Of a DNA stretch of 20,000 nt, positions 3-17,415 are shown piece after piece; position 1 is the stretch's first letter; every line of letters begins with the position of its first letter. The notes beneath the pieces are model-generated. The model was not told the DNA's origin. It did not search any database and was given only the letters and a program-made list of their open reading frames with translations. The position numbers were made by a program, and so were the translations under genes. This DNA comes from an uncultured virus (IMG/VR IMGVR_UViG_3300012347_000249). Its lineage: Duplodnaviria; Heunggongvirae; Uroviricota; Caudoviricetes. Location of the stretch: IMG/VR virus record IMGVR_UViG_3300012347_000249. The stretch is one strand, 5' to 3'.

Positions 3-812
3 ATGCTGCCCGAGTTTACATTCGAGAGTGCAGAAGCACACATGGATTCGTTGTTAGAAAACGATGACTTTGCACCAAGCAAACGTGCTGCCACTAATAT
101 AGCTGCAAGCGGCTGGAGACGAGGTGGAGAGCGTACAGGTAGTTTAAAGGGCTACGTAGAAACAACTTTTGATCACATTAAAAGTGTGTTTGGCGACCCA
201 ATAGATGGGCCAACCGACAAGCCATATGATAAAGTATCCTGCGAGTGGATCGTGACATTCAAAGATGGCACTGTAGCATCAATTTACGATTACAAAACCG
301 GCAAAACCCCAATGAATCTATATCGTTGGCACATTGGCGGGAATAATGCAAGAGCCGTTGAGTATGTAACTCACCTATTAGGCATTGAAGGCGAAGTATA
401 CGAAGGGCAAGAAGTATTTGAAAATGCTCCAGCATTGCTAAAAGCAGAAATGCCATTGGTTCGTGAAATTGAACAAAGCATGGCAGATAACGGATACCAA
501 AAAGGCACAGAAGAATACACAAAAGTATTTGATCATATGTTGGCATTCCATCGCAAATTTGGTAACGCCAGCAGAATTAACCAACCGGACCCTGTTAATA
601 AGTTTAACCACAATCCCGACGACAATTGGTCTGCAGACTTTGAGCGCCGTATGAAAGTTAGTGAAATGACCGCAGGTGGCACAGGTGCAGGCGGATTTGC
701 AACAGGCCCTACTGCTGGTGGTACATTTAAAAAGACAACAGGTGTTCCTAAAAAAGTTAAAAATACTCTACGTAGAATATCACCTAAAATTGGCACAGGA
801 ATTTACAAATGA
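3..812 (+). CDS. Modular putative head-packaged polyprotein, probably 5'-truncated by the window edge
   Basis: ORF starts at the window edge. Putative processing sites LLE|NDDFAP, VFE|NA and VSE|MTAGGTGAGGFA. The first module (SLKGYV..FGDP..DKV..EW..ASIYDYK..WHIGG) looks like a small domain I recall from phage hypotheticals. Basic C-terminus. Stop overlaps next ATG (ATGA). Confidence 0.75.
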   Translation: MLPEFTFESAEAHMDSLLENDDFAPSKRAATNIAASGWRRGGERTGSLKGYVETTFDHIKSVFGDPIDGPTDKPYDKVSCEWIVTFKDGTVASIYDYKTGKTPMNLYRWHIGGNNARAVEYVTHLLGIEGEVYEGQEVFENAPALLKAEMPLVREIEQSMADNGYQKGTEEYTKVFDHMLAFHRKFGNASRINQPDPVNKFNHNPDDNWSADFERRMKVSEMTAGGTGAGGFATGPTAGGTFKKTTGVPKKVKNTLRRISPKIGTGIYK

Positions 813-2785
813 GCGACATGAAACGTCTACTAGAAAAGATGACTCAATTTGCTGGTCAAGCAGTTGGGCAAAAGCCCGGTGATCAAGTTCGCGGCACAGA
901 GAAGGCAACCAAACGTAAAGATAACAAGCATCCGTTTGCCGGTCGCTTAGTTGGGGCTAGCGAAAGCAAAAGCCTATTAGCTGATTTAGAAAAAGAGCTA
1001 GTTGAAGGTGCGGTTAAGCGTAGCCTAGCAGAACAGTTTGCTGAGTTTAAAGAAACTAAGGTTGCATACGATAAGCAAACTGGGCAAATGGGAGTAGATA
1101 ACTCAGATCCAGATCAACGCCACGGATTATATATTAACGGTAAACTAGTTAAGACTGTAAATGGCGCAGATGCAGCCAACAACTTAAAGAAACGTGATCC
1201 ACGCTTTAAGGATGCAACTGTTAAGAAGATTGCAGAATCTGACGATATGTTTGCAGATCGTCAATCTCAGAAAATCGGGCAAGCTATTATCAAAGCCGGC
1301 AAAAGTGTAATAGAAGATGCACCACATATGTGGCCAGACGATAAAGAAATGATTGAATTTACCATTATCGATGGCAAAGACATGATCAAGATTGGCAAGA
1401 CATTCATTGAACAAGGTATGTCTGCTGGCGAAGATGCGTTCTGGGACGTAGACACCGCAGTGCGTGATCAAATGTATGACGCTGTTCTTGATATTGGCAT
1501 CGACCTAAATGATGTATTGCTTGATGAACAGCAAGATGTGGCAGAAGGCTCTAATGTAGATTCGCAAATCAAACGAATCAAAGACAGAATCCTACAACTC
1601 AAGGATTGGAATACAACTGGCTCACATGACAAGAAAATTAAAGAACTACAAACAAGACTAAAAGAACTACGGTCACAAAAGCAAAGTGTGGCGGAAGAAA
1701 TGACGCCGGCTGGCGAATTTCTAAACAAACAAGAACGCTTGAAAGCTGGCGACAAAGTTTATTACAAAGGCCGTGTAGTTGGTATTGCAACGGGCGACAT
1801 GGATGACGACCGTGTGGTGTTTAAGCCAGTGCCTGGATATGGAACTAACCCCAACTTTGCTAGCTTGCCAATTGATTTAATCAGTTTGAGAGAAAGCAAT
1901 CAGTTTAGCGACTTAGAAATTGCTATCATGGAAGGCGGCAACTCTCTAGAAGAGTTAGATGAGACTCGTTTGATCCACAGTGATTCCAAAGTTAACATAT
2001 TCTACAAGCCAGGACACAATCAAACTAAAGCTCAGATGGTAGCACGTATGGTCCCAAACAGCCAGGTTGATCGCATTATTGCATCGTTGGTAAACAAGTT
2101 CGGGGTTAAGTCAACAGATTTTGAATGGCATCCTGGCGATCGTGATCAGTATAAGTTTACCAATGAAGATGCCGAGTCTTTTGGATACAAGAGTTTACAT
2201 CCAGAAATATTTAAAGCACGTCAACAATTCCCAATGGCCAAGAGCGATATGGAAGCGTTGTTGATGTATGTGCAATCGCAAGAAGAACAAGACATTGATC
2301 GTGTTGACCGTGTAAACGATCGCGAAGATGCAGAGATTGAACAGCTTGACAAAGAAGAAGATTCATTAGAAAGCCGACTAGAAGCATTAACTGCACAGTT
2401 GGAAAAATTAAAGACAAAAGCAAAAACTGTTAAAGAAGAAGTTCCTGCACCAGTTGCAACCGCAGGTGGTCCAGCTGGAGCCAATCAACCAAAGACTACA
2501 CCGCCTGGTGCTACTCCAGCAGTTGATCCTGCACAGCAAGCATTACTAAAACAAAATCAATCTAAGCTACAACAAAACCTAGCAAACTTAAAGAGTGCTG
2601 GCGTACAAATTGATCCTGCAAAGGCTGCTCAGACCCTACAAAAGACTGATACCGGCGCCCCAATGAACGCAATGGATAAAGATACTATTGCACAAATGGC
2701 ACCTGCTATTGGTGACGTAATGTCAAATCCACAGACAGCAACTCAATTAAATACACTAATTAAAAAGGCTGGTGGTGGTGTGTAA
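809..2785 (+). CDS. Modular putative head-packaged polyprotein (658 aa)
   Basis: Leader MSDMKRLLE. Many [ILV]-x-E junctions (LVE|G, IAE|SDDMFA, VAE|GS, VAE|EM, LRE|S, LDE|T, VKE|E) separate short domains. Coiled-coil segments and a P/A/Q-rich C-terminal module. Confidence 0.8.
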   Translation: MSDMKRLLEKMTQFAGQAVGQKPGDQVRGTEKATKRKDNKHPFAGRLVGASESKSLLADLEKELVEGAVKRSLAEQFAEFKETKVAYDKQTGQMGVDNSDPDQRHGLYINGKLVKTVNGADAANNLKKRDPRFKDATVKKIAESDDMFADRQSQKIGQAIIKAGKSVIEDAPHMWPDDKEMIEFTIIDGKDMIKIGKTFIEQGMSAGEDAFWDVDTAVRDQMYDAVLDIGIDLNDVLLDEQQDVAEGSNVDSQIKRIKDRILQLKDWNTTGSHDKKIKELQTRLKELRSQKQSVAEEMTPAGEFLNKQERLKAGDKVYYKGRVVGIATGDMDDDRVVFKPVPGYGTNPNFASLPIDLISLRESNQFSDLEIAIMEGGNSLEELDETRLIHSDSKVNIFYKPGHNQTKAQMVARMVPNSQVDRIIASLVNKFGVKSTDFEWHPGDRDQYKFTNEDAESFGYKSLHPEIFKARQQFPMAKSDMEALLMYVQSQEEQDIDRVDRVNDREDAEIEQLDKEEDSLESRLEALTAQLEKLKTKAKTVKEEVPAPVATAGGPAGANQPKTTPPGATPAVDPAQQALLKQNQSKLQQNLANLKSAGVQIDPAKAAQTLQKTDTGAPMNAMDKDTIAQMAPAIGDVMSNPQTATQLNTLIKKAGGGV

Positions 2786-4659
2786 TGCGTATACATGATA
2801 TTTTTGAGAACAGTGGTGATGACTTATTTTCTACGCCACGTAACGAGCTAGGCAAATATATTCGTGCCGGACAGTGGGCAAGTGCTGCTATTCAATGTTT
2901 AAAATCTGGTTATCGAAACGCTCAGGTTGAGCAGAATATCATTCCTGGTATTACTCGCAGCAGCCGATCCGGTAGTGTTGCAGGTGGGGCAATTTGGTAT
3001 GATGTTAGAGATTGGTATCAAAAGTTTATTGCACCAAACGACTGGCCTGAATTGTTACAGTACGTATCTAGTCTAAAGGCCAAAGGTCCACTTAATTCTG
3101 CATTAAGACACTTGGTGAATTTTTATGCAGATGATAACCCACAACGTACCAATGAGGTATATCAACTAATAGTTGACAAAAAAGCCGTTGATGCATTGGT
3201 TTACTTCTTAACTTGGCCGGGCAACGAAAATATGAAACGTGTTCCGGAATTGGAACCATATATTATGACTAGCCCGCGTGCCGCTATGTATTATGCAGAC
3301 AGTGTGTTAGATTCACGTTGGCCCGATGCTGAGCCATATATTGCCACAGACAAAGTGTCGTGGAGCATGTATTCTGCTAGATTATTAAACACCGACAACA
3401 TGACCAAAGCAGGCCGTGCTACTAGAGATGCAGCACAGCAAGAAGCATTAAGAAGATTACCAGCAGGACACAAGAAACGTATCGCAGAAGATGAAATGTT
3501 TGCCACAAGCAATCGCAGCAAAGTATATCCTGCAATTAAATCTGTGTTAGATGGGTTTTACGACCATTATCAAGCTCTATACAATCAAGCAGATCCAGAA
3601 GCCAGCGAAGAATGGTATATTCAACTTGGCGAATATCTAAGTGACTACGACTATCTGCGTAGCGAATTAGCACGAGGCGGCATCCCTGGATTTTTAAATG
3701 GCTTAGACATGATGTCACAAGAAATCATAAATGCTATTGACAGCGAACTAGCAATCAAGCATCGGGTATTCTTGAATCAAATTGAAGATCAGAATGCTCC
3801 ACTAGACGAAGACACTGACGAATACGATGATGATATGTTTGGCTCAAGGACTACTGGTCACCCTACATATCTACTGAAAGCTAAACAAGCTCGAGAAAAA
3901 TACATCCAGCACGAAAATCAATTTGAGAAAGAATTGCGTAAACTAGGCCAACGTTTACCACAGTCGTGGGATGGAAGCAAAATGTTTAAGAAATTATCCA
4001 GTGACCCAAAGTACGCTGCGGCACTAAAACATTATGCAGCCAGTGAAAAATATGCAGGTCTAGCACAAAAATACGAAGACTTAGCACAACGTAAAGCGGT
4101 TAAGGAAGAAGACGATATGTTTTCTGATAACCGTGTAGTGATCAACCCACGCACTTTATCTAATATTACTCATCAATTATCTCGTAGATACCACAAATAT
4201 GCCGGAACTAGTGCCGAACAAGACACTGCTGATCTATATCATTCGGAGGCATATGTGCTAGAACGTGCATCGGATGCATTTCTAAATGGACTACGTGCAG
4301 GCATTAAAGAACTAGAAGACTTAGAAGATTCAACAACATGGGAAGACCTAGATGAACTTGCTGCCGACTTCAATATTAACTTATCTGCACTAATGGACAA
4401 ATACGATGCAGGTGAATTACACGAGTCTGAAGACGATGACATGTTTGCGCCAAGCAACAAACCCAACCTACAAAAGATTAGCACAGATCAACTAAGAATG
4501 CTGCACTCATTGTCTAAGACTGATTCCCGTCAAGAGTATGCATCTGCACATAAACTACAAATAGCAAGAATTGAGGCGGAAATGGCCCGTAGAGGTTTGC
4601 CAATGCGAACTCTCGACGAAGACATCAACATACCACTCGGTTCCCATAAAGGTAAGTAA
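2785..4659 (+). CDS. Modular putative head-packaged polyprotein with five DDMF-tagged modules (624 aa)
   Basis: Leader MRIHDIFE. Junctions IFE|NSGDDLFS, IAE|DEMFA, LDE|DTDEYDDDMFG, VKE|EDDMFS, LHE|SEDDDMFAP. TAATG overlap with the upstream gene. Confidence 0.8.
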   Translation: MRIHDIFENSGDDLFSTPRNELGKYIRAGQWASAAIQCLKSGYRNAQVEQNIIPGITRSSRSGSVAGGAIWYDVRDWYQKFIAPNDWPELLQYVSSLKAKGPLNSALRHLVNFYADDNPQRTNEVYQLIVDKKAVDALVYFLTWPGNENMKRVPELEPYIMTSPRAAMYYADSVLDSRWPDAEPYIATDKVSWSMYSARLLNTDNMTKAGRATRDAAQQEALRRLPAGHKKRIAEDEMFATSNRSKVYPAIKSVLDGFYDHYQALYNQADPEASEEWYIQLGEYLSDYDYLRSELARGGIPGFLNGLDMMSQEIINAIDSELAIKHRVFLNQIEDQNAPLDEDTDEYDDDMFGSRTTGHPTYLLKAKQAREKYIQHENQFEKELRKLGQRLPQSWDGSKMFKKLSSDPKYAAALKHYAASEKYAGLAQKYEDLAQRKAVKEEDDMFSDNRVVINPRTLSNITHQLSRRYHKYAGTSAEQDTADLYHSEAYVLERASDAFLNGLRAGIKELEDLEDSTTWEDLDELAADFNINLSALMDKYDAGELHESEDDDMFAPSNKPNLQKISTDQLRMLHSLSKTDSRQEYASAHKLQIARIEAEMARRGLPMRTLDEDINIPLGSHKGK

Positions 4660-4662
4660 TAT

Positions 4663-6261
4663 ATGTTTATTAATGAATTATTTGAAAATGACGACATGTT
4701 CGCTGCCAAGCGTCCCGGAAAATACTATGACTCCGATCGTCAACCACGTGAGTACCGAGTCTTTTGGGATCAGCTAATCCCTGATTCAGGAAAAGCAGAA
4801 ACCGTCGAAGGTGAAATGCTACGTGCAGTTTCTAAAATACAACACGACTTCTATAACAACGGATTTGGTAACAACTGGAGCGGGGCACTTGCTTACCTAC
4901 AGCAATATTTGCCATCATTTGGTGTTAATATTCCTCATACCTTATGGAACACTATTAGTCCGTATGCCACAGGAAGAACACATCCTAATAACCAAAAAAT
5001 AGAAAACAATATCGGCCTAGCACTTGACCAAATCACAGACGGTGTTATGGCTGCAATACGAAATAGTGATGGCAACTATCATCCTAATCGAGCAGATATG
5101 TATGACATGTCTAGTCCAACTCAATGGAGTGACGACGAAGATGATTACGACGAAGATGAAGACGATTATGAGGATGATGTTTACGAAAACGCAGACGAAA
5201 TGTTTTCAACTAGTCGGCCTCGTGTGGCTGCAAACCAGAGAGAAGAATTGCAGCGAAGAATCATTAATGCTTATAATAGGGTTAATAAAAATCATCTAGA
5301 TTACGGGGTTAGACAACTCGATGATAGCGAAGAATACCGAATCCTGAAAATTATCTATGCAGACAATCCCGATCCGTTGCAGGCGGCTCTAGAAAGAGCC
5401 AAAGAGTCAGACTTAGACGTTTTGGCTAACGATTTCGAAAAGATAGCCGACGAGCTTGATAGAGATCTACTCGAAGCATCGTTTCAGTTTGACTTAGACG
5501 ACGAACCAGAGCCTCCTAAGAAAACCCAAACTAAGGATAAGCCAAAGTTTAATCACGATCCGTTCCAACAGCAACAGGATCGCCCTTTAGCCAATCGCCA
5601 AGCAGAGCCGCAGGGCAGTGCAGCCCAACCGGCTGCTCCTAGAATGCGCCAAGCAACAGCAGCAAACACCCGTAGAGCCGCAGGAAATGTGGAACCTACG
5701 GATCAAATGCGTGATATGTTGGGTCGCATGCGAGACATTGAAATTGATCCAGACTTGGCAGACTACCCTGCCGACGAGCCTACTTTAGATATTAGTACAG
5801 AAGTTAACACTGAAAACTTGCCAGCAGTGGCAGGACAAGCAATTGCCGCAGCAGGCGAATCTAGCCCAGAGTTCCACCAAGTTGCACGTTTACCGGGCAA
5901 CATGAGTCGCATGATTCGTCAACTTGGCAAAGCATTGTTTGGCAGCATGACCAATACACCAACAGAAGACATCTACATGATTGGTAACTTAGGTGGGCAA
6001 GGTCCAAACACACGCATGGAAGTGAATGCAGTTGCTAACTTTGTTCGTGAGAACGGCAACGACATGGGCCCAGGAGATATTGATTTTGATGCAGTAATGC
6101 CAGGTTACTCTGCACAGACACATCAGTACGAAGCAGCAGGCATTCGTTGGTTGCTGGTCAAAGACTTTGCAGGTGAATACATTTATGCATGGCCAGAGGC
6201 AGATAGCAAGAACACTGGTAATACTGCACAACTAAGCAACGAGCCAAAGAGAATCAAATGA
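4663..6261 (+). CDS. Modular putative head-packaged polyprotein (532 aa)
   Basis: Leader MFINELFE|NDDMFAA; module LIPDSGKAETVEGEMLRA..YNNG; acidic linker; VYE|NADEMFS; LLE|AS; C-terminal globular domain. Confidence 0.8.
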   Translation: MFINELFENDDMFAAKRPGKYYDSDRQPREYRVFWDQLIPDSGKAETVEGEMLRAVSKIQHDFYNNGFGNNWSGALAYLQQYLPSFGVNIPHTLWNTISPYATGRTHPNNQKIENNIGLALDQITDGVMAAIRNSDGNYHPNRADMYDMSSPTQWSDDEDDYDEDEDDYEDDVYENADEMFSTSRPRVAANQREELQRRIINAYNRVNKNHLDYGVRQLDDSEEYRILKIIYADNPDPLQAALERAKESDLDVLANDFEKIADELDRDLLEASFQFDLDDEPEPPKKTQTKDKPKFNHDPFQQQQDRPLANRQAEPQGSAAQPAAPRMRQATAANTRRAAGNVEPTDQMRDMLGRMRDIEIDPDLADYPADEPTLDISTEVNTENLPAVAGQAIAAAGESSPEFHQVARLPGNMSRMIRQLGKALFGSMTNTPTEDIYMIGNLGGQGPNTRMEVNAVANFVRENGNDMGPGDIDFDAVMPGYSAQTHQYEAAGIRWLLVKDFAGEYIYAWPEADSKNTGNTAQLSNEPKRIK

Positions 6262-6968
6262 GAGCTAGTGAGTTCATACCCGAAGACATAAATCCTGACG
6301 TTTACCATCAGGATTTTTCTCATGAACTTGAGATAGACGGTATTGTATACCGAGCTAAAACACTAAAGAACGACCAACAGTTTGTTGTTAGGGCATATGC
6401 CGGCAAACAATGCATTGGATTTGCAAAGTTTCGCCTCCCACGACATGAGGGGCTATCATTATCCAGTGACTGGACTAAGGTTGCAAAGTCATATAGAAAC
6501 AAAGGCATTGCATCTAACATGTATGCGTATGCACGTATGCTAGGTAATACCATTAACCCATCTAGTTATCAACTTGACCCAGGTAGACGTATGTGGGACA
6601 AATGGCGCGAAAAAGGTGATGCTAAACACCTAAGTGAAACAGATGACGACATGTTTGCCCCGACTAAGGGCATACGAATTGCAGATGCACTGATACGTAT
6701 TGCAATCAGCGAACTTAGAGAACTAAGACACAACTTAGAAGTAGCTACAGATCCTGTTGAAAAAGACTGGACTCGTGATCAAATTACAGATATTCCACAG
6801 TTAATTGAGCTAGCTAACACCTTTAGAACAGAACCATTGTCAGTAGCACTAGATGCCGCAGAATCATTATCATTTGTATTGTCAATTGATTTTATTGACC
6901 TGCTACTGCACCACGACAACATCGACCTACGTGAGCTATTCACTGGGTGGGAACCAGAAGACAACTAA
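6258..6968 (+). CDS. GNAT-family acetyltransferase domain plus a DDMF-tagged helical module; putative head-packaged protein
   Basis: Leader MRASEFIPE; acetyl-CoA-binding motif A V-AKSYRNKGIA; downstream PSSYQLDPGRRMW; junction LSE|TDDDMFAP. Confidence 0.75.
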   Translation: MRASEFIPEDINPDVYHQDFSHELEIDGIVYRAKTLKNDQQFVVRAYAGKQCIGFAKFRLPRHEGLSLSSDWTKVAKSYRNKGIASNMYAYARMLGNTINPSSYQLDPGRRMWDKWREKGDAKHLSETDDDMFAPTKGIRIADALIRIAISELRELRHNLEVATDPVEKDWTRDQITDIPQLIELANTFRTEPLSVALDAAESLSFVLSIDFIDLLLHHDNIDLRELFTGWEPEDN

Positions 6969-6971
6969 ATA
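6965..6971 (+). promoter_or_regulatory. Probable T4-type late promoter core (CTAAATA); would give a near-leaderless mRNA
   Basis: TAAATA at 6966-6971 overlaps the upstream stop codon and lies 4 nt before ATG 6976; no Shine-Dalgarno present. Confidence 0.45.
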
Positions 6972-6975
6972 GATC

Positions 6976-8370
6976 ATGCGAGCAAAAGAATTTTTACTGT
7001 TAGAATACCGCAGAGATGTAACTGCACAAAAGATGGGCGACCGTCTTATTACATCGTTCCACGCTAAAGAGAACGGCCATTCCCTGCCTGACAATTTGTA
7101 TGGCGCATGGACAGTAGTAGATATGGTTATTCGCCCAAAGTTTCACTTTGAAGATACAATCGTAATGAATGTGTTGGGACAGAAGACCACCATCAACAAA
7201 GCAACTGCTCCGGAAATACTACAAAAAATAAAACCAGCACTAATTGATGCTATCCTAGCAGCATTGGAACAAGGCGATCCAACAGCACACAAAGAATACA
7301 CCCAATGGATTGCTGCCCGTTACATTACTGGCGACACAAAGCTAGAGGATGTTAGCAGTACCTTAAGAGAATATCTTCATAAGTTTGTTATTCTAAAGCG
7401 TAAGAAGATTCTAAAGCCGCCAGCAAACGATATCAACAAGTACAACAGCTTTGGTAACTTCATGGACAACATGGACGAGTATGCATTGCCCGAAGATGAA
7501 GTTGCTGATAAGGGCAAAGTTACTGAAATGTACAAGGATGCGGAAGTTCGCATTGTTGTACCAGAAGATGAACCAGCAGCTTGCTACTATGGACGTGGCA
7601 CACGTTGGTGTACAGCCGCAACACAGGGCACCAACTACTTTAATCACTACAGCCGTCAAGGTCCGTTGTATATCCTGATCCCAACAAAGGCCATGTACGA
7701 AGGCGAAAAGTACCAGTTACATTTCCCTAGCGAACAGTTTATGGACGAACAGGACGAATCTGTTTCATTGGAATACGTTATCAATGAACGATTTCATTTA
7801 TTAGACTTCTTTAAACAGCAAGAGCCCGAACTCAAAGACTATGTTGCATACACTGATGAAGAGCAGTTAGCGCCATTGCTGGCAAAGATCAAAGAAGTTG
7901 CAATGGACTGGCTGTGGGACGAAGTAATGAATTGGGAACAACAAGATGATTACTATACTCAGTGGCAAGCAGAGCAGGCCCGTGAACGTGGATGGGAAGA
8001 CGAAAATGGTGAGGTCGACTGGGATCGTGTACGCGAAGACGATCACCTAAACAACTACCTAGAATACAACGACGAAGTTAGAACTTGGGTCAAAGAAGTA
8101 GAAACTGCATTAGACTACAGCCCAAAAATGGTTAAAGATTTTGCATCTGCACCTAGAGATGGACTAGACGATCAAACATACAAGATGGAAGAGCTTGACG
8201 CTTTGCTTGCACGAATAGTAAACTACGAAACTGGTAAAGCTGGTAGTCGGGAATTTGATCACATTGCCAGTGCAATTGTAGAACGCATTGGTGTACGTAA
8301 AGACAGCAATAGAATCAGCAACAATGACCCAGTCTGGACAGTGTACGTATCAGGATGGCCCAGACACTAA
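6976..8370 (+). CDS. Putative head-packaged protein with a 'DPT..K.Y' helical domain and an 'RWCTA' domain (tentatively PcfJ-like); paralog of 8401..10794
   Basis: Leader MRAKEFLLLE; motifs GDPTAHKEYTQW, ACYYGRGTRWCTAA, YFNHYSRQGPLYILIP, EKYQLHF..QFMD. Confidence 0.75.
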   Translation: MRAKEFLLLEYRRDVTAQKMGDRLITSFHAKENGHSLPDNLYGAWTVVDMVIRPKFHFEDTIVMNVLGQKTTINKATAPEILQKIKPALIDAILAALEQGDPTAHKEYTQWIAARYITGDTKLEDVSSTLREYLHKFVILKRKKILKPPANDINKYNSFGNFMDNMDEYALPEDEVADKGKVTEMYKDAEVRIVVPEDEPAACYYGRGTRWCTAATQGTNYFNHYSRQGPLYILIPTKAMYEGEKYQLHFPSEQFMDEQDESVSLEYVINERFHLLDFFKQQEPELKDYVAYTDEEQLAPLLAKIKEVAMDWLWDEVMNWEQQDDYYTQWQAEQARERGWEDENGEVDWDRVREDDHLNNYLEYNDEVRTWVKEVETALDYSPKMVKDFASAPRDGLDDQTYKMEELDALLARIVNYETGKAGSREFDHIASAIVERIGVRKDSNRISNNDPVWTVYVSGWPRH

Positions 8371-8374
8371 CTCG

Positions 8375-8382
8375 TATAAATA
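8375..8382 (+). promoter_or_regulatory. T4-type late promoter TATAAATA
   Basis: Exact match to the T4 gp55-dependent late promoter consensus in a 30-nt intergenic gap, followed by AGAGGA and ATG 8401. Confidence 0.8.
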
Positions 8383-8400
8383 CTCATAAGAGGATTAGAC

Positions 8401-10794
8401 ATGAGATTTAACGACATTTTATTAGAATATAACCGCGATCAAACAGTTAAGAACTACGGTAACAAAGTATTAGCAGTTGCACTAAAAGATCGTTCAGTTA
8501 TAAACGCACTTATTGGGCGATTCCCAAATGGTGCAATTAAAGCTGGTGCAGATACCCCAGAAGGGCAACAGTTAATTCTAGACTACGTTATGGGGGTTAT
8601 TGAGCAATCAGACCCAACAAAGAACAAAAACTACGCACAAGCTATTACTAGAATGTACACCTTGGGTGGCACAATGCTAGAAGATATTGAGTCTACACTA
8701 AGTCAGTATCTAATCAAATTTGACAAGCTAAAAAACAAAAAGAAGATTCCTGCTCCGCAAAACGACTTTATGCGTTACAAGAGCTTAGATGAGTTCATGA
8801 GCGTAGTTGAGCAACTACCTGATCCAGACAGCGAAATTGAGCAACAAAAAATCGGTGCTGTGCAATTACCACCCGAACGCGACTGGCGTTACGTTTACGG
8901 AAGAATGGATGAGCAAGGTCGTATTACAACTGACTGCTTGATCATTCAACCATTGACTAAATTTGGCGGTTACTGGTGGGCAAAAGAATACCCAAAGAAG
9001 GGTGTTACTAACCGTTGGTGTACAGCGTGGGAAGGCGATAACAGTCGCTTTGATTACTATGCCAAGCAAGGCCCACTATTCATTATTATTCCTGCACAAC
9101 GCACAGACGATAACGAAAAGTATCAATTCCATTTCGAAACTAAACAGTTCATGGACTTCCAAGATCACCAAATTGGTGACGAAGGTATGGACCAATTGGC
9201 TAAACGTTTCCCTGCACTACAACAGGTATTTAGACGTCAGGCAATCCAGTACAACTTACTTGGACTAATGACAGATGACTACAAAGCCGCAGTTCGCAGC
9301 CACTCTAAAGTTGCGTCTAAAGAGCTAGACTCTCTAATTGAGCAATACAAAGAACGTATTGCTGGGTTTGGATTCAGCAGCCTAGGTGACTACGGTATCA
9401 CTATCCCTGAAGACACTCAACGTGAATTAATGCCACTAATTGAAAACTACCTTGAGCAGTGTAGAGCTACGTTAGTTAGCAAGGACGGATTCTGGCGCCA
9501 GGTAGTGAATAAACTAGGCACAGAGCGAAACGAAGACAAACTAGAAGTTATCTTAAACACAGACTCATCACTAAAAGCATTAGTTGAGCAAAGTGAAGCA
9601 GGAAAAGCAGTTGCAGAAATAGCATCCTTGCCAAACATCAAACAGCGTATTGATGCAAGTCACTTGCAAGATTTATTATTGCGTGACCCATTGTTCCGTT
9701 TTACCATGCGCCAAGTTCCTAAGTTGTACAAATCCTTCTTAGATGAATTGAGTAGCACACAAGTTAACGAAGCATATAGCATGGATGACTTGCGTAAAGA
9801 TGCAGCAGCCGGAGTAAAAGCGTCAATTGATAAACAAAGTGATGCACGTATTGCAGCACAACGAAACCCACAGAGCTTTATGAGCAAAGTCGGCGATAAG
9901 ATCGTAGGCGGCGTTACTGGAGCAGTTAAGGGAGCCTACAATGGTTTCCGTGGCGAGCTAGAAGAAAACAACAACGAAATGTTTAGCGACGAAGGATTCT
10001 TTGTTGTTATTGCAAACGAAAACGATGGCGCCTTTGTTGGTATGGTAACCAAAGATGGCGGTAAGTGGAGAGAAACTGATGTAGAAGGTAATGCACCAAG
10101 CAACTGGGGCGGCAACTACATGAGCTACTTAACACCAGACGATGTAATGCAACATATTCGCAATGACTACCGTAGACATAGCGAAGTTAAAGGCCCGTTC
10201 TTTGATGAGCAAGAAGCTCTTGAGTATGCACGAAGCCATTATGACTTAGGTGGTGACGACGATTACTTTGATGACGAAGACGAAGACACCATGGAAGAAG
10301 GCAAAATGAAAGACATTGATATTGGTCGCCAAGACCGTGAATCAATGTCACCACAACAATTCCGTGGACAGTACAAGCAAAGCAAAGACGACTGGACTGC
10401 CGATAACAGCGATGTACTGGATGGCCCAGCTGTTGCTCCTACACCACGTAAGAAGGCCTCTAACACTGTCGAAGCATACATGGAAGTGTATAACAAACGT
10501 GATCAACGTGAGTTTAAGAGCATGCCTTTCCCAAGCGAGAAAGCAGCACAACGTTGGGCAGATTCGCACAACGCTATTATCCATAGCATTGTTCCACTAA
10601 AAGGGGTAGCAGAGCAAACTGAAGAGCCAGAAGACGATGTAGATCATGATGATGGTAAAATTGCAGGACGCTACCACCCAGACGAGTTTGACGAGTTAGT
10701 TAATCGCGTTAAAGCAAAAGCCAAAGAACAAGAACGTATTCACGGTCCTGTTGATATTGCAAAACTTGCAGCACGTCTACGCGGTATCCAGTAA
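8401..10794 (+). CDS. Modular putative head-packaged polyprotein; N-terminal half paralogous to 6976..8370
   Basis: Leader MRFNDILLE. Motifs SDPTKNKNYAQ, NRWCTAW, RFDYYAKQGPLFIIIP, EKYQFHF..QFMD. Later junctions VNE|AY, LEE|NNNEMFS, VAE|QT. Confidence 0.8.
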   Translation: MRFNDILLEYNRDQTVKNYGNKVLAVALKDRSVINALIGRFPNGAIKAGADTPEGQQLILDYVMGVIEQSDPTKNKNYAQAITRMYTLGGTMLEDIESTLSQYLIKFDKLKNKKKIPAPQNDFMRYKSLDEFMSVVEQLPDPDSEIEQQKIGAVQLPPERDWRYVYGRMDEQGRITTDCLIIQPLTKFGGYWWAKEYPKKGVTNRWCTAWEGDNSRFDYYAKQGPLFIIIPAQRTDDNEKYQFHFETKQFMDFQDHQIGDEGMDQLAKRFPALQQVFRRQAIQYNLLGLMTDDYKAAVRSHSKVASKELDSLIEQYKERIAGFGFSSLGDYGITIPEDTQRELMPLIENYLEQCRATLVSKDGFWRQVVNKLGTERNEDKLEVILNTDSSLKALVEQSEAGKAVAEIASLPNIKQRIDASHLQDLLLRDPLFRFTMRQVPKLYKSFLDELSSTQVNEAYSMDDLRKDAAAGVKASIDKQSDARIAAQRNPQSFMSKVGDKIVGGVTGAVKGAYNGFRGELEENNNEMFSDEGFFVVIANENDGAFVGMVTKDGGKWRETDVEGNAPSNWGGNYMSYLTPDDVMQHIRNDYRRHSEVKGPFFDEQEALEYARSHYDLGGDDDYFDDEDEDTMEEGKMKDIDIGRQDRESMSPQQFRGQYKQSKDDWTADNSDVLDGPAVAPTPRKKASNTVEAYMEVYNKRDQREFKSMPFPSEKAAQRWADSHNAIIHSIVPLKGVAEQTEEPEDDVDHDDGKIAGRYHPDEFDELVNRVKAKAKEQERIHGPVDIAKLAARLRGIQ

Positions 10795-11870
10795 TGACTG
10801 ACAAGACTAAGATCCTGGACATGATCAAAAAGTTCCTTCCTATTGCTGTGAAGGAACTTGATCTACAATCATTGCCAGCAATGAAACCAGTTACTAGTCT
10901 TGCACATGGCGAACATCCTAGCTTTGGTCGCTTTGTTCCTGAAACAAACACCATTGAGTTTGCCATTGAAGATAGACACCCAATTGATATTCTGCGTACA
11001 CTTGCACATGAACTAGTGCATTGCAAACAACGCGAAGATAATCGTTTAAAGCATGACAGCGGTGAAACTGGCAGCAACGAAGAAAATGAAGCCAATGCCC
11101 GTGCAGGTATTATTATGCGTAACTTTGATGATGCGTATCCTGGGTACTTTGCCGAAGAGCCGGTTAATCTAGATGAAGGAATAGACTATGCTAAAGGGAA
11201 CATTGATTATCATAGTACTCTTAATCCTATCGCCTGGGAAGGTGACCAGTTACGAACCGAAGTCAGACTCAAGCTACTTGAAATTGCGAAAGTATTTGTA
11301 GACTACTTAGAGATTCCCGATTTTGAAATTGCAGACATTGTGCTAACTGGGTCATTGGCCAACTACAACTACACTAAGTTCAGCGACTTTGATTTACACG
11401 TAGTAACAGACTACAGCAACTTGCAGTGCGACGATATTGCAGAAGCATTGTATCAAGCCAAGAAACAAATTTGGAATGATCGTCATGACATTACCATTCA
11501 CGGGTACGATGTTGAGTTGTATGTTGAGGATATCAATCAGCCACCTGTTAGTGCAGGTACATACAGCATCCTAGATCAAACTTGGATCAACACACCGGAA
11601 CAAAAGACCCCAACCATTGACCGTAATGCAGTTAATGCAAAGGTAACAGATCTAGTTAAGCAAATTGATCACGCAATTGCCGCAGCTGATGAACCTAGTG
11701 ACATTAGACGTGTAACTGCTAAGTTACGTAAGATGCGACAAAGTGGATTAGACTCAGCAGGTGAGTTCAGTGTAGAAAATTTAGCATTTAAAGTTCTACG
11801 TAACTTGGGCTACATAAGTAAATTAAGTAAAGCATTTTATCACAAGCAAGACAGTCAGTTAAGTTTGTGA
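10794..11870 (+). CDS. Fusion of an N-terminal HEXXH zincin-like metallopeptidase domain and a C-terminal DNA-polymerase-beta-superfamily nucleotidyltransferase
   Basis: LRTLAHELVH (11007-11021) with downstream ENEANA; junction NLDE|GI at 11169-11177; NTase signature LTGS-x10-DFDLH plus a third acidic strand DVELYVED. Confidence 0.8.
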   Translation: MTDKTKILDMIKKFLPIAVKELDLQSLPAMKPVTSLAHGEHPSFGRFVPETNTIEFAIEDRHPIDILRTLAHELVHCKQREDNRLKHDSGETGSNEENEANARAGIIMRNFDDAYPGYFAEEPVNLDEGIDYAKGNIDYHSTLNPIAWEGDQLRTEVRLKLLEIAKVFVDYLEIPDFEIADIVLTGSLANYNYTKFSDFDLHVVTDYSNLQCDDIAEALYQAKKQIWNDRHDITIHGYDVELYVEDINQPPVSAGTYSILDQTWINTPEQKTPTIDRNAVNAKVTDLVKQIDHAIAAADEPSDIRRVTAKLRKMRQSGLDSAGEFSVENLAFKVLRNLGYISKLSKAFYHKQDSQLSL

Positions 11871-11876
11871 TCCCGA

Positions 11877-11990
11877 ACCTACCTTAGGTCCGTTGATGTC
11901 AACGGTTAGGAGCTCTGCTCCAGGCGTCAAATAGGCGGCTGCTGCCTAGTACATGAGTTACGCCAGATTCTGTACAAAGTGAGCTTTTTT
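11877..11990 (+). ncRNA. Candidate structured RNA: five hairpins, two potential pseudoknots and a 3' U-tract; family not recognised
   Basis: Stems ACCTA/TAGGT, CCGTTG/CAACGG, GGAGC/GCTCC, TAGGC/GCCTA, GTACA/TGTAC. Loop ACGCC (11960-64) is complementary to GGCGT (11923-27). Loop GCTGCT (11938-43) is complementary to AGT-G-AGC (11978-84). Confidence 0.6.
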
Positions 11991-11996
11991 ACGGCC

Positions 11997-12012
11997 GTTG
12001 TAAAAATACAAC
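11997..12012. promoter_or_regulatory. Palindromic operator-like site GTTGTA-AAAA-TACAAC
   Basis: Perfect 6-bp inverted repeat with a 4-nt spacer just upstream of a promoter; second copy at 12389-12404. Confidence 0.55.
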
Positions 12013-12060
12013 AAAATATTTCTATCTTTTCGGTAAAGTTCTTAAAAATGGTGTTATACT
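12013..12060 (+). promoter_or_regulatory. Early/middle-type promoter: AAAATATTT, GGTAAA, 17-nt spacer, extended -10 TGtTATACT
   Basis: GGTAAA 12032-37 and TATACT 12055-60; same layout recurs at 12410-12458. Confidence 0.6.
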
Positions 12061-12106
12061 CTAGTTATTGCAGCACAGTGCTGTAATCAACAACCAGGAG
12101 TAAACA

Positions 12107-12379
12107 ATGCCCAAAGCAACTGCAAACTTTACAGCAGACGATCTTAAACCCCTTGAAACCGCAGAATCCAAGGAATCTGCACAAACTTTGCTTCACGCTA
12201 TTGTGGACAAAGCAGCGGGCAGCAAGTACGCCATTAAGCCTGAAAAAGTAGCTGCATTGCATCGCAACATTAATAATGCACGTAGCAAAGCAGAAGTCGT
12301 TGCAATTGGCTGGAACATGTTGCTTGCTGGTGAAAAGCTGTCTAGCGTGTCTAGCACATACCAACGCAAGTACGCATAA
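12107..12379 (+). CDS. Hypothetical protein (90 aa)
   Basis: AGGAG Shine-Dalgarno at 12096-12100, own promoter, 5'-UTR hairpin at 12067-12087. Confidence 0.8.
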   Translation: MPKATANFTADDLKPLETAESKESAQTLLHAIVDKAAGSKYAIKPEKVAALHRNINNARSKAEVVAIGWNMLLAGEKLSSVSSTYQRKYA

Positions 12380-12413
12380 TTTTAGGGTGTTGTAGAAATA
12401 CAACACTTTAAAA
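12380..12413. promoter_or_regulatory. Extended palindrome GTGTTGTA-GAAA-TACAACAC; operator and/or terminator hairpin
   Basis: 8-bp perfect inverted repeat, extendable to 15 bp with two G-U pairs; GAAA loop; begins right after the stop of 12107..12379. Confidence 0.55.
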
Positions 12414-12458
12414 ATAATTTTGCCAAATTGGTAAAATCATTCAAAAACCGTTTACAAT
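12410..12458 (+). promoter_or_regulatory. Early/middle-type promoter: AAAATAATTT, GGTAAA, 17-nt spacer, TACAAT
   Basis: GGTAAA 12430-35 and TACAAT 12453-58. Confidence 0.6.
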
Positions 12459-12494
12459 ACACACATGTTCAACAAACGCTCAAAGGAGAGCCAA

Positions 12495-12761
12495 ATGCAA
12501 GTTCAAACTAAAACAGGTATCATCCACAAAGGTAATTACGGTTCGCTGTACAATGTGGAAACTGGTCAAGTCATGGAAGCCCGTGTAAAAACTGGCAAAC
12601 GTGGCCGTCCTGCTAAAGTTGACGCTCCTGCGTTTTGCACTAACATTACTAACGATCTGTTTGGTCGTGTGCCTAATGTTGCTCCTAAGGGCATCCAAGG
12701 TCGTGTGGTGATTGGCAAGGCCAGCGCCAATGCAGTGTATGCAAACGACTGCGACGAATAA
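12495..12761 (+). CDS. Small basic protein with an AT-hook-like motif (KRGRPAK); possibly DNA-binding
   Basis: AAGGAG at 12483-88 favours ATG 12495 (MQVQTK) over the ORF-track start 12465; RGRP core flanked by lysines. Confidence 0.7.
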   Translation: MQVQTKTGIIHKGNYGSLYNVETGQVMEARVKTGKRGRPAKVDAPAFCTNITNDLFGRVPNVAPKGIQGRVVIGKASANAVYANDCDE

Positions 12762-12770
12762 GCAGTAAGA

Positions 12771-12817
12771 AAAATATTTTTGCAAAGTCAAAAATTAATT
12801 CAAAACTGTCTTACAAT
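12771..12817 (+). promoter_or_regulatory. Probable promoter for the MoxR gene (AAAATATTT ... TACAAT)
   Basis: AAAATATTT starts 41 nt before TACAAT (12812-17), matching the 42-43 nt offset of the two upstream promoters; -35 region degenerate. Confidence 0.5.
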
Positions 12818-12864
12818 AGAGACTGAAACAATTTTTTAACAACAGCTTTTTTAAGGAGTATTTC

Positions 12865-13965
12865 ATGGCTGTAACTGAGCATCGTTCCGTAACCCCATCT
12901 GACGCACGTAGCCGTGTGTTGCGAGCATTCAAGAACAAACGTCCCGTGTTCTTGTGGGGCCCTCCTGGTATTGGTAAGTCTGAGCTGATCCAAGGCTTGA
13001 CTGAAGAACTGGGTGGCGCTTGCATTGACTTGCGTTTGGGCCAATGTGAACCCACTGACTTGCGTGGCATTCCCTACTTCGATCGCGACAAAGGCGTTAT
13101 GAACTGGGCTCCCCCAATCGAACTGCCAAGCGAAGAATTCGCTAAACAATATCCAATCGTGGTGTTGTTCTTGGACGAGATGAACTCCGCTGCTCCTGCT
13201 GTGCAGGGTGCTGCTTACCAGCTGATCTTGAACCGCCAAGTTGGTACCTACAAGTTGCCCGACAACGTGGTGATGGTTGCTGCGGGTAACCGTGAAAGCG
13301 ACAAGGGTGTGAGCTATCGCATGCCTAGCCCACTGGCAAACCGTTTCGTCCACTTGGAAGTGCGTCAAGACTTTGACAGCTGGTTCAACTGGGCTGTGAG
13401 CAAGAACATCCACAAAGACGTTGTTGGTTACATTTCGTTTGCCAAGCAAGATTTGTTTGACTTTGATCCAAAGTCTGCAAGCCGTAGCTTTGCTACTCCT
13501 CGTACATGGACCTTCGTGTCTGACTTCTTGTACGACGAAGACGCCACTGACGCAGAGTTGACTGACTTGATCGCAGGTACAGTTGGCGAAGGTCTTGCTG
13601 TGAAGTTCATGGCACACCGTAAGGTTGCTGGTTCTATGCCACGTCCCGAAGATGTGTTGGCCGGCAAGGTCAAAGAGTTGAAAGTGAAAGAAGTGTCTGC
13701 TATGTACTCGCTGACTATCAGCTTGTGCTACGAACTGCAAGAGCAATACAAAAAGCTCGGCAAGGACAAGATGGCAGACTGGCATGCTCAAGCTGATAAC
13801 TTCCTGAAGTTCATGATGGATAACTTCTCCACAGAACTGGTTGTTATGGGTGCTCGTGTTGCATTGACTACCTACAACCTGCCCATGGTTCCTGGTAAGA
13901 TGCCTAACTTCGACGAGTTCCACAAACGCTTCGGTAAGTACATTATCGCAGCTAGCGGCAAGTAA
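12865..13965 (+). CDS. MoxR-like AAA+ ATPase
   Basis: Walker A GPPGIGKS, Walker B LFLDEMN, sensor-1 AAGNR, arginine finger LANRF; AAGGAG Shine-Dalgarno. Confidence 0.92.
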   Translation: MAVTEHRSVTPSDARSRVLRAFKNKRPVFLWGPPGIGKSELIQGLTEELGGACIDLRLGQCEPTDLRGIPYFDRDKGVMNWAPPIELPSEEFAKQYPIVVLFLDEMNSAAPAVQGAAYQLILNRQVGTYKLPDNVVMVAAGNRESDKGVSYRMPSPLANRFVHLEVRQDFDSWFNWAVSKNIHKDVVGYISFAKQDLFDFDPKSASRSFATPRTWTFVSDFLYDEDATDAELTDLIAGTVGEGLAVKFMAHRKVAGSMPRPEDVLAGKVKELKVKEVSAMYSLTISLCYELQEQYKKLGKDKMADWHAQADNFLKFMMDNFSTELVVMGARVALTTYNLPMVPGKMPNFDEFHKRFGKYIIAASGK

Positions 13966-13983
13966 CCTGGGACGATGCTAGGT

Positions 13984-14020
13984 AAGGAGGCTGACGCAAG
14001 TCATAAGTCCTCCTTTTTCT
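13984..14020 (+). terminator. Intrinsic terminator with an internal loop and GCAA tetraloop
   Basis: AAGGAGG/CCTCCTT outer stem, TGAC-GCAA-GTCA inner hairpin, T-rich tail. Confidence 0.65.
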
Positions 14021-14023
14021 ACT

Positions 14024-14299
14024 ATGTCAATAGTCATTACTAAACTCGATGGTCGTCATGCAGGACATATATTATTTTCGCACAGAGCGGAAATAATTGG
14101 CACTTGGATAGAACGTGACCAAGAGTTCGTTCAAGTACGTGAGTGGTGTTGGGAAACGTTTGGCCCCGGCGTTGAAAGAGATCTAATCCACGCAAAGAAA
14201 GATTCTAAGTGGGGCTGGCACCTAAACCAAAGTCCCGCAAAGTATTACATTTATCTTAAAGATGAATACCTAACACACTTTACCCTTAAATGGAAGTAA
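14024..14299 (+). CDS. Phage hypothetical protein (W-C-W-E-T-F-G-P ... F-T-L-K-W type)
   Basis: 91-aa ORF filling the gap; pattern resembles small proteins I recall as expanded in large phages. Confidence 0.7.
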   Translation: MSIVITKLDGRHAGHILFSHRAEIIGTWIERDQEFVQVREWCWETFGPGVERDLIHAKKDSKWGWHLNQSPAKYYIYLKDEYLTHFTLKWK

Positions 14300-14300
14300 A

Positions 14301-14762
14301 ATGGAAGAAGTAAACGAAAACAGCGTTGAGGAAGAAGTCGTTCTTCACTTTAAACGCTTCGCACAAGAAAAGCAGGACCAAGTTCGTGCTCTAGTTAACT
14401 ATGCCACCCTTATGGGGCTCAACGGCAAGGACCTAGTTAGTATTGGTGGTAAATTAAATCGCATTGCCGACAATCGCGAACTGAAACTAAACGAACACAT
14501 TGTTTCAAGCATGAATATCCGTCCAATTGGTCAGGATAAAAACTGCTACAATCGTTGGGCGTACACTGACGCTTCAGGAGTGGTTTATCACTTCAAATGC
14601 AGCTATTCTAGGTACGATATTACCAATACTGTTACTAAAAAGACAGCCAAAGGGTACACCAATGAGTACTACAAAGTTGGCCGCCGTTTTCACATCTTGG
14701 AAAACCGCGAGTTACCCAACATCATGCTAAACATTTATCACGGCAATATTTTTTTGCCGTAA
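14301..14762 (+). CDS. Hypothetical protein (153 aa)
   Basis: ORF starts 1 nt after the previous stop; no recognisable motif. Confidence 0.7.
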   Translation: MEEVNENSVEEEVVLHFKRFAQEKQDQVRALVNYATLMGLNGKDLVSIGGKLNRIADNRELKLNEHIVSSMNIRPIGQDKNCYNRWAYTDASGVVYHFKCSYSRYDITNTVTKKTAKGYTNEYYKVGRRFHILENRELPNIMLNIYHGNIFLP

Positions 14763-14781
14763 ATCAAAAATCGTGTATAAT
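14754..14781 (+). promoter_or_regulatory. Sigma70-like promoter TTGCCG-N16-TATAAT
   Basis: Perfect -10 at 14776-81, TTG-containing -35 at 14754-59, AT-rich upstream tract, AAGGAG at 14794-99. Confidence 0.6.
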
Positions 14782-14804
14782 ATAGACATTAACAAGGAGT
14801 AACT

Positions 14805-16722: not shown

Positions 16723-17415
16723 ATGTTTGCAACAGGCGTATATCGCGATGCACCCGCAATTAATGCGGCAATGGGCCGTGTGTACTTTTACATGATGACT
16801 GCTGTGCTTAACAGCATGTTGGTCAGCTATGTAATTGGCACCACCCCCGCACTGGCCCACTTTTTCCTAACCGGAATTATGCACTGGGTGGTAATCTTTG
16901 CACCATTGGTGGCAATTTTCTTCATCACTCCTGCTCTTGCAGCAGATCCACCTGCACCAGTTGCAGTAGGCATTCTACATGCCTTTGCGGCACTAATGGG
17001 ACTAAGTCTTAGTGTGATCTTTGTTGCATACGCAATGACCAGTATCTTTACAGCGTTCATGGGCGCCGCAGTGCTGTTTGGTACTATGAGCTTCTACGGT
17101 TACTTTACTAAGAAAGATCTTAGTGGAATGGGTAGCTTGCTGTTTGTTGGATTGATTGCAATCATCATTGCCAGTATTATCAATATCTTTATTGGTAGCA
17201 CAGTAATGCAAATGGTTATCAGTGCAATTGCAATCTTGATCTTCTTGGGCTTTACTGCGTATGACACACAGCAAATCCGTGAATCACTTAGTGTAGACAA
17301 TGAAGGCACAGCAGCACTTGAAGTAATCGGAGCATTGAGCTTGTACCTTGACTTCATTAACTTGTTTGTTAACTTGCTGCAACTTATTGGCGTAGCACCG
17401 GGCAACGACGACTAA
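16723..17415 (+). CDS. Bax inhibitor-1/YccA (TMBIM) family membrane protein
   Basis: About seven hydrophobic segments; signatures YGYFTKKDLS, TAYDTQQI, GALSLYLDFINLF; AAGGAG Shine-Dalgarno. Confidence 0.92.
   Translation: MFATGVYRDAPAINAAMGRVYFYMMTAVLNSMLVSYVIGTTPALAHFFLTGIMHWVVIFAPLVAIFFITPALAADPPAPVAVGILHAFAALMGLSLSVIFVAYAMTSIFTAFMGAAVLFGTMSFYGYFTKKDLSGMGSLLFVGLIAIIIASIINIFIGSTVMQMVISAIAILIFLGFTAYDTQQIRESLSVDNEGTAALEVIGALSLYLDFINLFVNLLQLIGVAPGNDD

Follow-up and report, generated by a model that had tools for sequence, protein, structure and literature searches.

The stretch of DNA studied here, a window of 20,000 nucleotides from an uncultured virus of the Caudoviricetes (IMG/VR record IMGVR_UViG_3300012347_000249), opens with seven tightly packed open reading frames (ORFs), ORF1 to ORF7, most of whose products appear as chains of largely helical modules of roughly 100 residues with flexible linkers in between. 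A two-part joint recurs at the module borders: a hydrophobic-x-Glu motif and, behind it, an acidic peptide ending in Met-Phe, called the tag in what follows. At a probability of about 55%, the best account of these genes is that they form a block of capsid-packaged cargo polyproteins, which would be cut after Glu by a prohead protease of the S77 family. The acidic Met-Phe tag behind the cut site is the new part of this system. No conserved peptide after the cut site was found in the literature searched on prohead proteases, internal and ejection proteins, and polyvalent proteins, in agreement with a preliminary description of this DNA, made from its letters, which knew of no post-cleavage tag of this kind.

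How could such a system work? The chain would go into the prohead core by means of its leader, and perhaps also of its joints, and the head protease would then cleave behind each Glu. The freed modules, of ~100 residues, would be small proteins able to exit with the DNA, and each would keep the acidic Met-Phe peptide as its new N terminus. The joint would thereby be a portable cassette border, permitting modules to be swapped, duplicated or transferred without loss of packaging or release.

A two-part joint at the module borders

Eleven junctions had been listed in the preliminary description, and all of them lie in frame where it had placed them, in six ORFs of the plus strand. Nine contain [DE][DE]MF, one DDLF, and one DDF without Met. 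The last of these belongs to ORF1 (LLE-NDD-F-AP, 51..77), and it is followed by IAE-SDD-MF-A in ORF2 (1229..1255). ORF3 has five: IFE-NSGDD-LF-S, right behind the leader (2800..2832), IAE-DE-MF-A (3481..3504), LDE-DTDEYDDD-MF-G (3802..3843), VKE-EDD-MF-S (4099..4125), and LHE-SEDDD-MF-A (4417..4449). The two of ORF4 are LFE-NDD-MF-A, again right behind the leader (4678..4704), and VYE-NADE-MF-S, behind an acidic tail (5179..5208). ORF5 contributes LSE-TDDD-MF-A (6630..6659) and ORF7 LEE-NNNE-MF-S (9958..9987), the latter conserved in the related locus L006.

Depending on the pattern and the shuffling, 10-11 joints stand against 0.01-0.5 expected. For instance, ORF1 to ORF7 (3580 residues) show 10 instances of [DEN][DE][ML]F[AGS], compared with a mean of 0.09 and a maximum of 2 in 5000 whole-protein shuffles, and with 0.11 when blocks of 30 residues are shuffled. 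The regular expression proposed in the preliminary description as a check on enrichment gives 11 matches in the same ORFs and 0.04 in shuffles. When the window is read in six frames, 11 of 11 matches are on the plus strand and none is on the minus strand. Outside these seven, the window has 16 ORFs (2887 residues), which together yield a single weak match: NDLFG at 12651, not preceded by a hydrophobic-x-Glu. The 98-residue ORF bearing this match (12465-12761) resembles two tandem repeats in a 600-residue protein of G002, the best whole-genome relative of the window, and its NDLFG is conserved in L006.

The synonymous variation that had been noted at the tag (GAT/GAC, TTT/TTC, and four Ala codons) is real: in 43 different DNA contexts, taken from the window itself and from five related loci, the tag codons match the general codon usage of the genes concerned. 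The constraint therefore acts on the peptide, and the idea of the tag as a repeat at the DNA level is ruled out.

A larger picture of the joint comes from 57 proteins, namely window ORF1-7 and 50 database relatives, 54 of which contain tags (212 in total, 190 distinct). The joint opens with a hydrophobic-x-Glu, and 2-9 residues, most of them acidic, separate it from [M/L]-F-[A/S], which is often continued by P-S-x-R/K. With [M/L] as position 0, Glu accounts for 47% at each of positions -5 and -4, Asp or Glu for 72% at -3 (D 39%, E 33%, N 8%, S 8%), and Asp for 90% at -2; position -1 is D 84% and E 16%, and position 0 is M 87% and L 13%. The definition of the tag demands Phe and then A, S or G, so that F at +1 is fixed by it, A 78%, S 17% and G 5% at +2 are limited by it, and the constancy of the Phe is not a finding. 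Further on, P reaches 29% at +3, S 35% at +4, and R/K about 40% at +5 and +6.

The two parts of the joint are coupled. An [LIVFM]-x-E lies no more than 12 residues upstream in 188 of the 190 distinct tags, against a mean of 68 and a maximum of 89 out of 190 in 2000 composition-preserving shuffles of those segments, and against 271 of 766 (35%) for other acidic pairs in the same proteins. Within that search pattern, the hydrophobic residue (P3) is L in 97, I in 54, V in 22, F in 10 and M in 5 of the 188 cases; the residue after Glu (P1') is most often S (64), E (48), N (35) or D (24). The T4 protease gp21 recognizes L/I-X-E (PMC9026906), and the proteases of phiKZ and SPN3US recognize A/S-X-E (PMC9026906, PMC10052503); by its sequence, the motif in the joint is of the T4 gp21 type and not of the phiKZ/SPN3US type. 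The gap between Glu and Met/Leu covers the whole range of 2-9 residues, with a mode of 3-4, and this variable register makes the Met-Phe an element of its own rather than part of a fixed subsite. For the same reason, it is unlikely that the tag is a fixed-register part of the cut site.

Variants of the joint exist. In a second sub-lineage (L059/L060) the tag reads DDDLF, and a minimal form, E-FAP, is found in G002 and in the protein P0023. With this minimal joint, L-x-E plus FAP (L011/G002 251816-254356, P0023), a putative cut after Glu would expose an N-terminal Phe, which in bacteria is a destabilizing residue.

Module shuffling and the distribution of the tag

A word-index search with ORF3 retrieved 15 relatives of 355-1058 residues, all metagenomic. 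Once these proteins were cut at the joint and their pieces clustered, 27 module clusters emerged, and nearly each protein proved to be a different string of them: ORF3 reads B-A-F-A-C after its leader, and P0002 reads J-B-V-K-L-E-A-A-C. The protein P0006 is P0005 plus one inserted module, G, and the insertion borders on the tag. Many modules are paralogous (cluster A has 32 members), and clusters unrelated to each other carry the same tag, in keeping with the earlier remark that the modules behind it are often unrelated. Proteins consist of 2-10 segments in varied order and have up to 13 tags (P0018, P0037), with a median tag-to-tag spacing of 109 residues (interquartile range 97-126, n=217). 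Modules also cross from gene to gene: those of ORF1, the middle of ORF2, ORF3 and ORF4 occur inside one another's frames (P0034, P0023, P0016, P0028). The module of ORF1 (residues 47-136) has relatives in 14 viral contigs at 32-35% identity, and it recurs within P0034, a protein of the ORF2 type. In P0028, a former start leader now lies in mid-chain, a relic of gene fusion. It is exactly at the joint that modules of ~100 residues are gained and lost, copied and transferred from gene to gene.

How far does the tag extend? A junction profile (A3, built on 42-residue windows) found 49 proteins in the word-indexed database at E 1 or less, out of 8000 candidates that were scored. In an exhaustive reading of 1.84 billion representatives, the same profile gave only 38 proteins at E 0.001 or less, with 2-11 matched stretches each. 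In G003, a 60-kb relative of the tag lineage, three block proteins (1297 residues) contain 6 tags, and outside the block there is one casual match in 76 ORFs (about 17,400 residues). Among 74 metagenome loci with the RWPEAEP-repeat module of ORF3, tags are found in 5, casual matches in 2 and neither in 67. This repeat, module B of ORF3 (window 2830-3480), has relatives in 265 metagenome stretches, nearly all without the tag, and one of them sits on a contig of 450,775 bp. The DDDMFAP pattern, back-translated and searched in IMG/VR, gave 5 matches, of which 2 are contigs already known and 3 are due to chance. A C-terminal NEDLFA in a protein of G002 and G003 was considered and set aside as casual; by eye, the protein resembles QueD, an enzyme of the queuosine pathway.

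Pfam and PHROGs, run on the ORFs of the window plus 28 more proteins with tags, identified almost no families among the modules. For these 28 proteins, Pfam matches at E 1e-3 or better are limited to four proteins, three with CTP_transf_like (cytidylyltransferase-like N modules) and one with DUF5661. Sequence searches of the PDB with ORF1, ORF4 and ORF6 returned nothing below E 0.1, and a fold search with the model of ORF4 returned generic helical bundles only, at Z 7.4 or less.

Leaders, head protease and competing explanations

The seven consecutive ORFs begin with leaders of 8-10 residues that resemble the capsid-targeting sequence (CTS) of T4: MLPEFTFE, MSDMKRLLE, MRIHDIFE, MFINELFE, MRASEFIPE, MRAKEFLLLE and MRFNDILLE, from ORF1 to ORF7. 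In the T4 record, IPII and IPIII start with MKTYQEFIAE; residues 1-10 of IPIII are the capsid-targeting sequence, where positions 4 and 7 serve targeting and 8 and 10 processing (PMC9026906). A CTS-like leader is present in 47 of 69 family proteins with a Met start, and in 38 a tag lies no more than 25 residues from the leader. The stretch IFENQEKDFQTAP of the T4 gp23 propeptide (L127, gene 23) aligns with IFENSGDDLFSTP of ORF3 (window 2797-2835), which may be chance.

The source of the window is best explained as an uncultured jumbo myovirus with a T4-type head. Its relative G002 is an IMG/VR contig of 320,767 bp, estimated to be 92% complete, and backbone proteins of the two share 62-84% identity. 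G002 possesses a head module in which an acidic core-like protein, a prohead protease (Peptidase_S77, E 5.6e-27, also a Pfam match), a scaffold and a Gp23-family capsid protein lie side by side. The scaffold has 22 hydrophobic-x-Glu sites in 368 residues, and the capsid protein has four of them ahead of the Gp23 domain. The S77 protease is absent from G003 and G001, both of which are genome fragments. A link with the virion comes from the N-domain of ORF6 and ORF7, which is 33-36% identical (36% for ORF6) to gp205 of the Pseudomonas jumbo phage PA5oct, annotated as 'structural protein, ESI-MS/MS'. The adjoining gp204 is annotated as hypothetical and reads, by eye, as the large terminase. As for structure, an AlphaFold model of ORF3 (11-row alignment, mean predicted local distance difference test, pLDDT, of 67.5) has helical modules at pLDDT 70-90, and 5 of 5 joints fall within coil segments of pLDDT below 50, of which the model has eight. 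For ORF4 the model is poorer (mean 42.7) and confident in the first module; 2 of 2 joints fall in low-confidence stretches.

The proposal of the preliminary description, that each gene encodes a polyprotein cut inside the head, is therefore upheld in part. It is indirectly supported by the hydrophobic-x-Glu at the module borders, the CTS-like leaders, the S77 protease of a relative, the joints in coil, and the relation of ORF6 to a protein annotated as part of the virion; the packaging, cleavage, delivery and timing of the block proteins are what we infer. Several points weigh against the reading. The hydrophobic-x-Glu motif is short and common, as its background of 35% indicates, and the low pLDDT at the joints may partly stem from shallow alignments (9-11 rows). 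The sole virion link is the annotation of a distant relative of ORF6, the one untagged protein of the block. No head genes were found in the window or in its tag-lineage relatives, so that the prohead protease of the window's own phage is unseen; a search for such genes through P0021, which lies on a contig of 360,168 bp, gave no match among viral or metagenome contigs. P0020 shares that contig, and P0037 and P0016 lie on contigs of 359,992 and 205,037 bp, respectively. In G002, the block sits between lysis/chaperone and replication genes, ~65 kb from the head module. Moreover, G002 is essentially tag-less, with 3 casual matches in 429 crude ORFs, and the tag is consequently not needed for packaging or cutting in general. 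Its syntenic block does have multi-module proteins and leaders (MKITEIILE, MFIAEMFTE, MKTTDFITE, MFLNQIFE), and this combination makes the tag a recent, lineage-restricted gain, superimposed on an older arrangement of leader and cut site. With regard to timing, the T4 late promoter motif has one match in the window, TATAAATA at 8375-8382, 19 nt before the start of ORF7 and in the only intergenic gap of the block. Since 0.87 matches are expected by chance, and the motif was not found ahead of the head genes of G002, it provides no evidence on timing.

If the chains are indeed cut in the head, what is the tag for? The best guess, tentative and with odds well short of even, is a role that precedes ejection: the tag would dock on the assembly core, or else on the protease at a place other than the active-site cleft. 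A bolder and rather doubtful view makes the joint a portable 'pack, cut and label' code, in which any module of ~100 residues set between two joints would be taken into the capsid and freed by the head protease; its N-terminal peptide would then be read after ejection as an address that docks dozens of mini-proteins, unrelated to each other, on one hub of host or phage, or would set the order of exit. As an explanation competing with the one preferred here, action after ejection, with the modules docking on a single hub of host or phage (such as a sliding clamp or a pocket for acidic-aromatic tails) or leaving in a signaled order, is unlikely; it had been raised in the preliminary description. 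A cut at the presumed place does leave the tag with the module, Asp occupies the two positions ahead of [M/L]F in 90% and 84% of tags, and the spacing of 2-9 from Glu sets it apart as an element. Furthermore, the DNA polymerases of G002 (257675-260344) and G003 (10259-12922, reverse-complement coordinates) end in a tag-like acidic-Leu-Phe tail, ...TTFDSLFSWE, and near the polymerase of G003 a 243-residue protein is a likely gp45-type clamp (an ESM Atlas lead, with a score of 0.94-0.95 to clamp clusters). The bacterial clamp-binding motif is Q-aliphatic-x-[L/M]-[F/L], and changing its Gln to Glu strongly lowers affinity (PMC11139829). The tag agrees with positions 4-5 of that motif (M 87% or L 13%, then the F required by definition) but fails at the defining ones, with no Gln at position 1 and Asp in 90% at the aliphatic position 2, which speaks against the clamp-binding DLF mimic suggested in the preliminary description. 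A complex prediction of three copies of the likely G003 clamp with a 42-residue tag window scored 0.01 and, run without controls, is evidence neither way. The other mimic once suggested, of the DDDIPF tip of the single-stranded DNA-binding protein (SSB), fares no better: the SSB tip must end the chain, with a free carboxylate on its Phe, whereas in the listed contexts the chain runs on past the Phe, mostly into a module of ~100 residues. Unlike that tip, the tag is never C-terminal, among tags that by definition have A, S or G behind the Phe, a definition under which chain-ending Phe tags were not searched directly. One shared target is also unlikely for modules unrelated to each other, and a close relative, G002, does without the tag.

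Other explanations dispense with cutting, with the S77 protease or with the virion. The proteins may be left uncut, as a multivalent 'sticker and spacer' scaffold in which the joint, a short linear motif repeated 2-13 times per protein, binds a multivalent partner so as to build, for example, a protein mass like an inner body within the capsid or an intracellular condensate. Up to 13 tags per protein, their regular spacing of ~109 residues, the disordered linkers, and the fact that no cut has been seen so far would suit this, but the near-universal hydrophobic-x-Glu, its T4-type P3 and its variable distance from the tag fit a separate cut site better, the leaders end with the same motif, and so variable a module content is ill-suited to a structural scaffold; the explanation is quite improbable. 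More improbable again is that the joints are processed by another enzyme, either ORF8, which is zincin-like (HExxH), or the pair formed by the DUF2201 metallopeptidase/VWA protein and the MoxR ATPase (12865-16058). Both in the window and in G002, ORF8 is the last gene of the block, its peptidase part has a leader of its own in G003, and zincin-like peptidases are a hallmark of polyvalent proteins, which they are proposed to process (PMC5512222). However, ORF8 and the DUF2201 protein are kept in the tag-less G002 (63% and 80% identity), and the motif before the tag fits the known specificity of S77 proteases. The least probable alternative regards the products as multi-domain proteins for host takeover, foreign to the virion, with the joint as a recombination-friendly linker inherited along with duplicated modules. 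The block does adjoin genes of replication and nucleotide metabolism, and many modules are paralogues, such as the 32 members of cluster A; yet the peptide is fixed at the tag while its codons are randomized, unrelated module clusters share the tag, and the CTS-like leaders and the coupling to hydrophobic-x-Glu would be left without explanation.

Were the preferred reading of head-cut cargo polyproteins true, the T4 scheme of leader and protease site would have become, in a phage lineage, a modular delivery platform, where one short joint lets any small protein be packaged and released. This would explain a fast turnover of injected anti-host or anti-defense repertoires. The joint would also be a simple sequence criterion by which injected mini-proteins of uncultured jumbo phages could be recognized; for the family studied here, this already amounts to ~27 module clusters, nearly all of them outside any known family. 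The tag itself points to a possible binding partner in head assembly, in ejection or in the infected cell, and it could be put to engineering use for bringing foreign proteins into phage heads, a use that the T4 CTS has already had. Finally, the doubtful 'pack, cut and label' code, if true, would be a cargo-addressing system without a described phage counterpart.

The genes of the block and known systems

All genes of the window are on the plus strand. ORF1 (3..812, 269 residues) has its leader, its junction and one module. ORF2 (809..2785, 658 residues) has one junction, and its conserved ends, residues 1-82 and 539-658, enclose a swapped middle: the first 82 and last 120 residues are 74% and 84% identical to G002, and the middle is wholly replaced. 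In the G002 homologue (L011 10001-12538), the middle has a stretch that resembles, by eye, an HD-type hydrolase, together with a small module that recurs at the C end of ORF7. ORF2 thus looks like a carrier with an exchangeable payload. ORF3 (2785..4659, 624 residues) is divided by its five junctions into six segments. ORF4 (4663..6261, 532 residues) has two junctions. Ralstonia phage RP13 and phage C48C1 carry its first module (residues 21-149) as a gene of its own, for a product of ~154 residues that has an acidic tail. ORF5 (6258..6968, 236 residues) combines a weak GNAT-like N module (Acetyltransf_1, Pfam E 6e-4, just below cut-off), one junction and a C module. ORF6 (6976..8370, 464 residues) has a leader and no tag, and ORF7 (8401..10794, 797 residues) joins an N-domain paralogous to ORF6 with the single junction at 9958. 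The block is closed by ORF8 (10794..11870, 358 residues), which has neither leader nor tag and consists of the HExxH zincin-like N part and a nucleotidyltransferase domain; its homologue with 63% identity occupies the same place in G002. In G003, the peptidase part of ORF8 is a separate gene of 124 residues with its own CTS-like leader.

Downstream, the window encodes a MoxR-type AAA ATPase (12865-13965) paired with the DUF2201 metallopeptidase/VWA protein (14805-16058), a membrane protein of the Bax-inhibitor-1 family (16723-17415; Pfam E 3e-54, 80% identity in G002), dihydrofolate reductase (DHFR) and thymidylate synthase. The AAA ATPase is 51% identical to its counterpart in PA5oct, and the PA5oct homologue of the MoxR-type ATPase is annotated as seen in virion mass spectrometry. 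Database rows for the window's own proteins lead to a contig of 74,157 bp. Annotated phages gave no DNA match to the window, and no DNA or protein match to ORF1-7 or ORF3.

Three known systems invite comparison. The internal proteins of T4 (IPI, IPII, IPIII and Alt) are the closest in their start, a leader of 8-10 residues ending in L/I-x-E (MKTYQEFIAE beside MRAKEFLLLE of ORF6), and they likewise combine varied cargo, each piece preceded by a conserved leader, with an S77 protease (here in the relative G002) and a hypervariable repertoire (PMC3012670, PMC9026906). They differ in that they are single units with one leader, whereas here up to ~13 modules share a chain with an internal cut-type site at each border; no counterpart of the acidic [M/L]-F-[A/S] tag was found in them, and for the block packaging and cutting are predicted.

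The polyvalent proteins of Iyer, Burroughs, Anand, de Souza and Aravind (2017) share with the block the many domains per polypeptide, the extensive mosaicism, the predicted packaging into the capsid and delivery with the DNA, and a zincin-like peptidase nearby, here ORF8 (PMC5512222). Their 2-15 distinct domains in mosaic chains describe the tag proteins as well. In contrast, known conflict-effector families (peptidase, ART and nuclease among them) supply the domains that define polyvalent proteins, whereas almost all modules here are without a family, and the available text of that paper describes no conserved junction motif, the word 'linker' having 0 occurrences in it (PMC5512222).

The third comparison is with the head proteins of phiKZ, 201phi2-1 and SPN3US, many of which are cut after Glu by a gp21-related protease, with several cut sites per chain and ejection with the DNA (PMC10052503, PMC9026906). 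In those phages P3 is Ala, Ser or Gly, and the joint has Leu, Ile or Val there; within the [LIVFM]-x-E search pattern, its sites are not of the small-residue S/A/G-x-E type. The cuts in those phages take off propeptides and do not divide strings of modules, and the available accounts report very few further determinants of cleavage, whereas in the block described here a strong tag stands behind the site.

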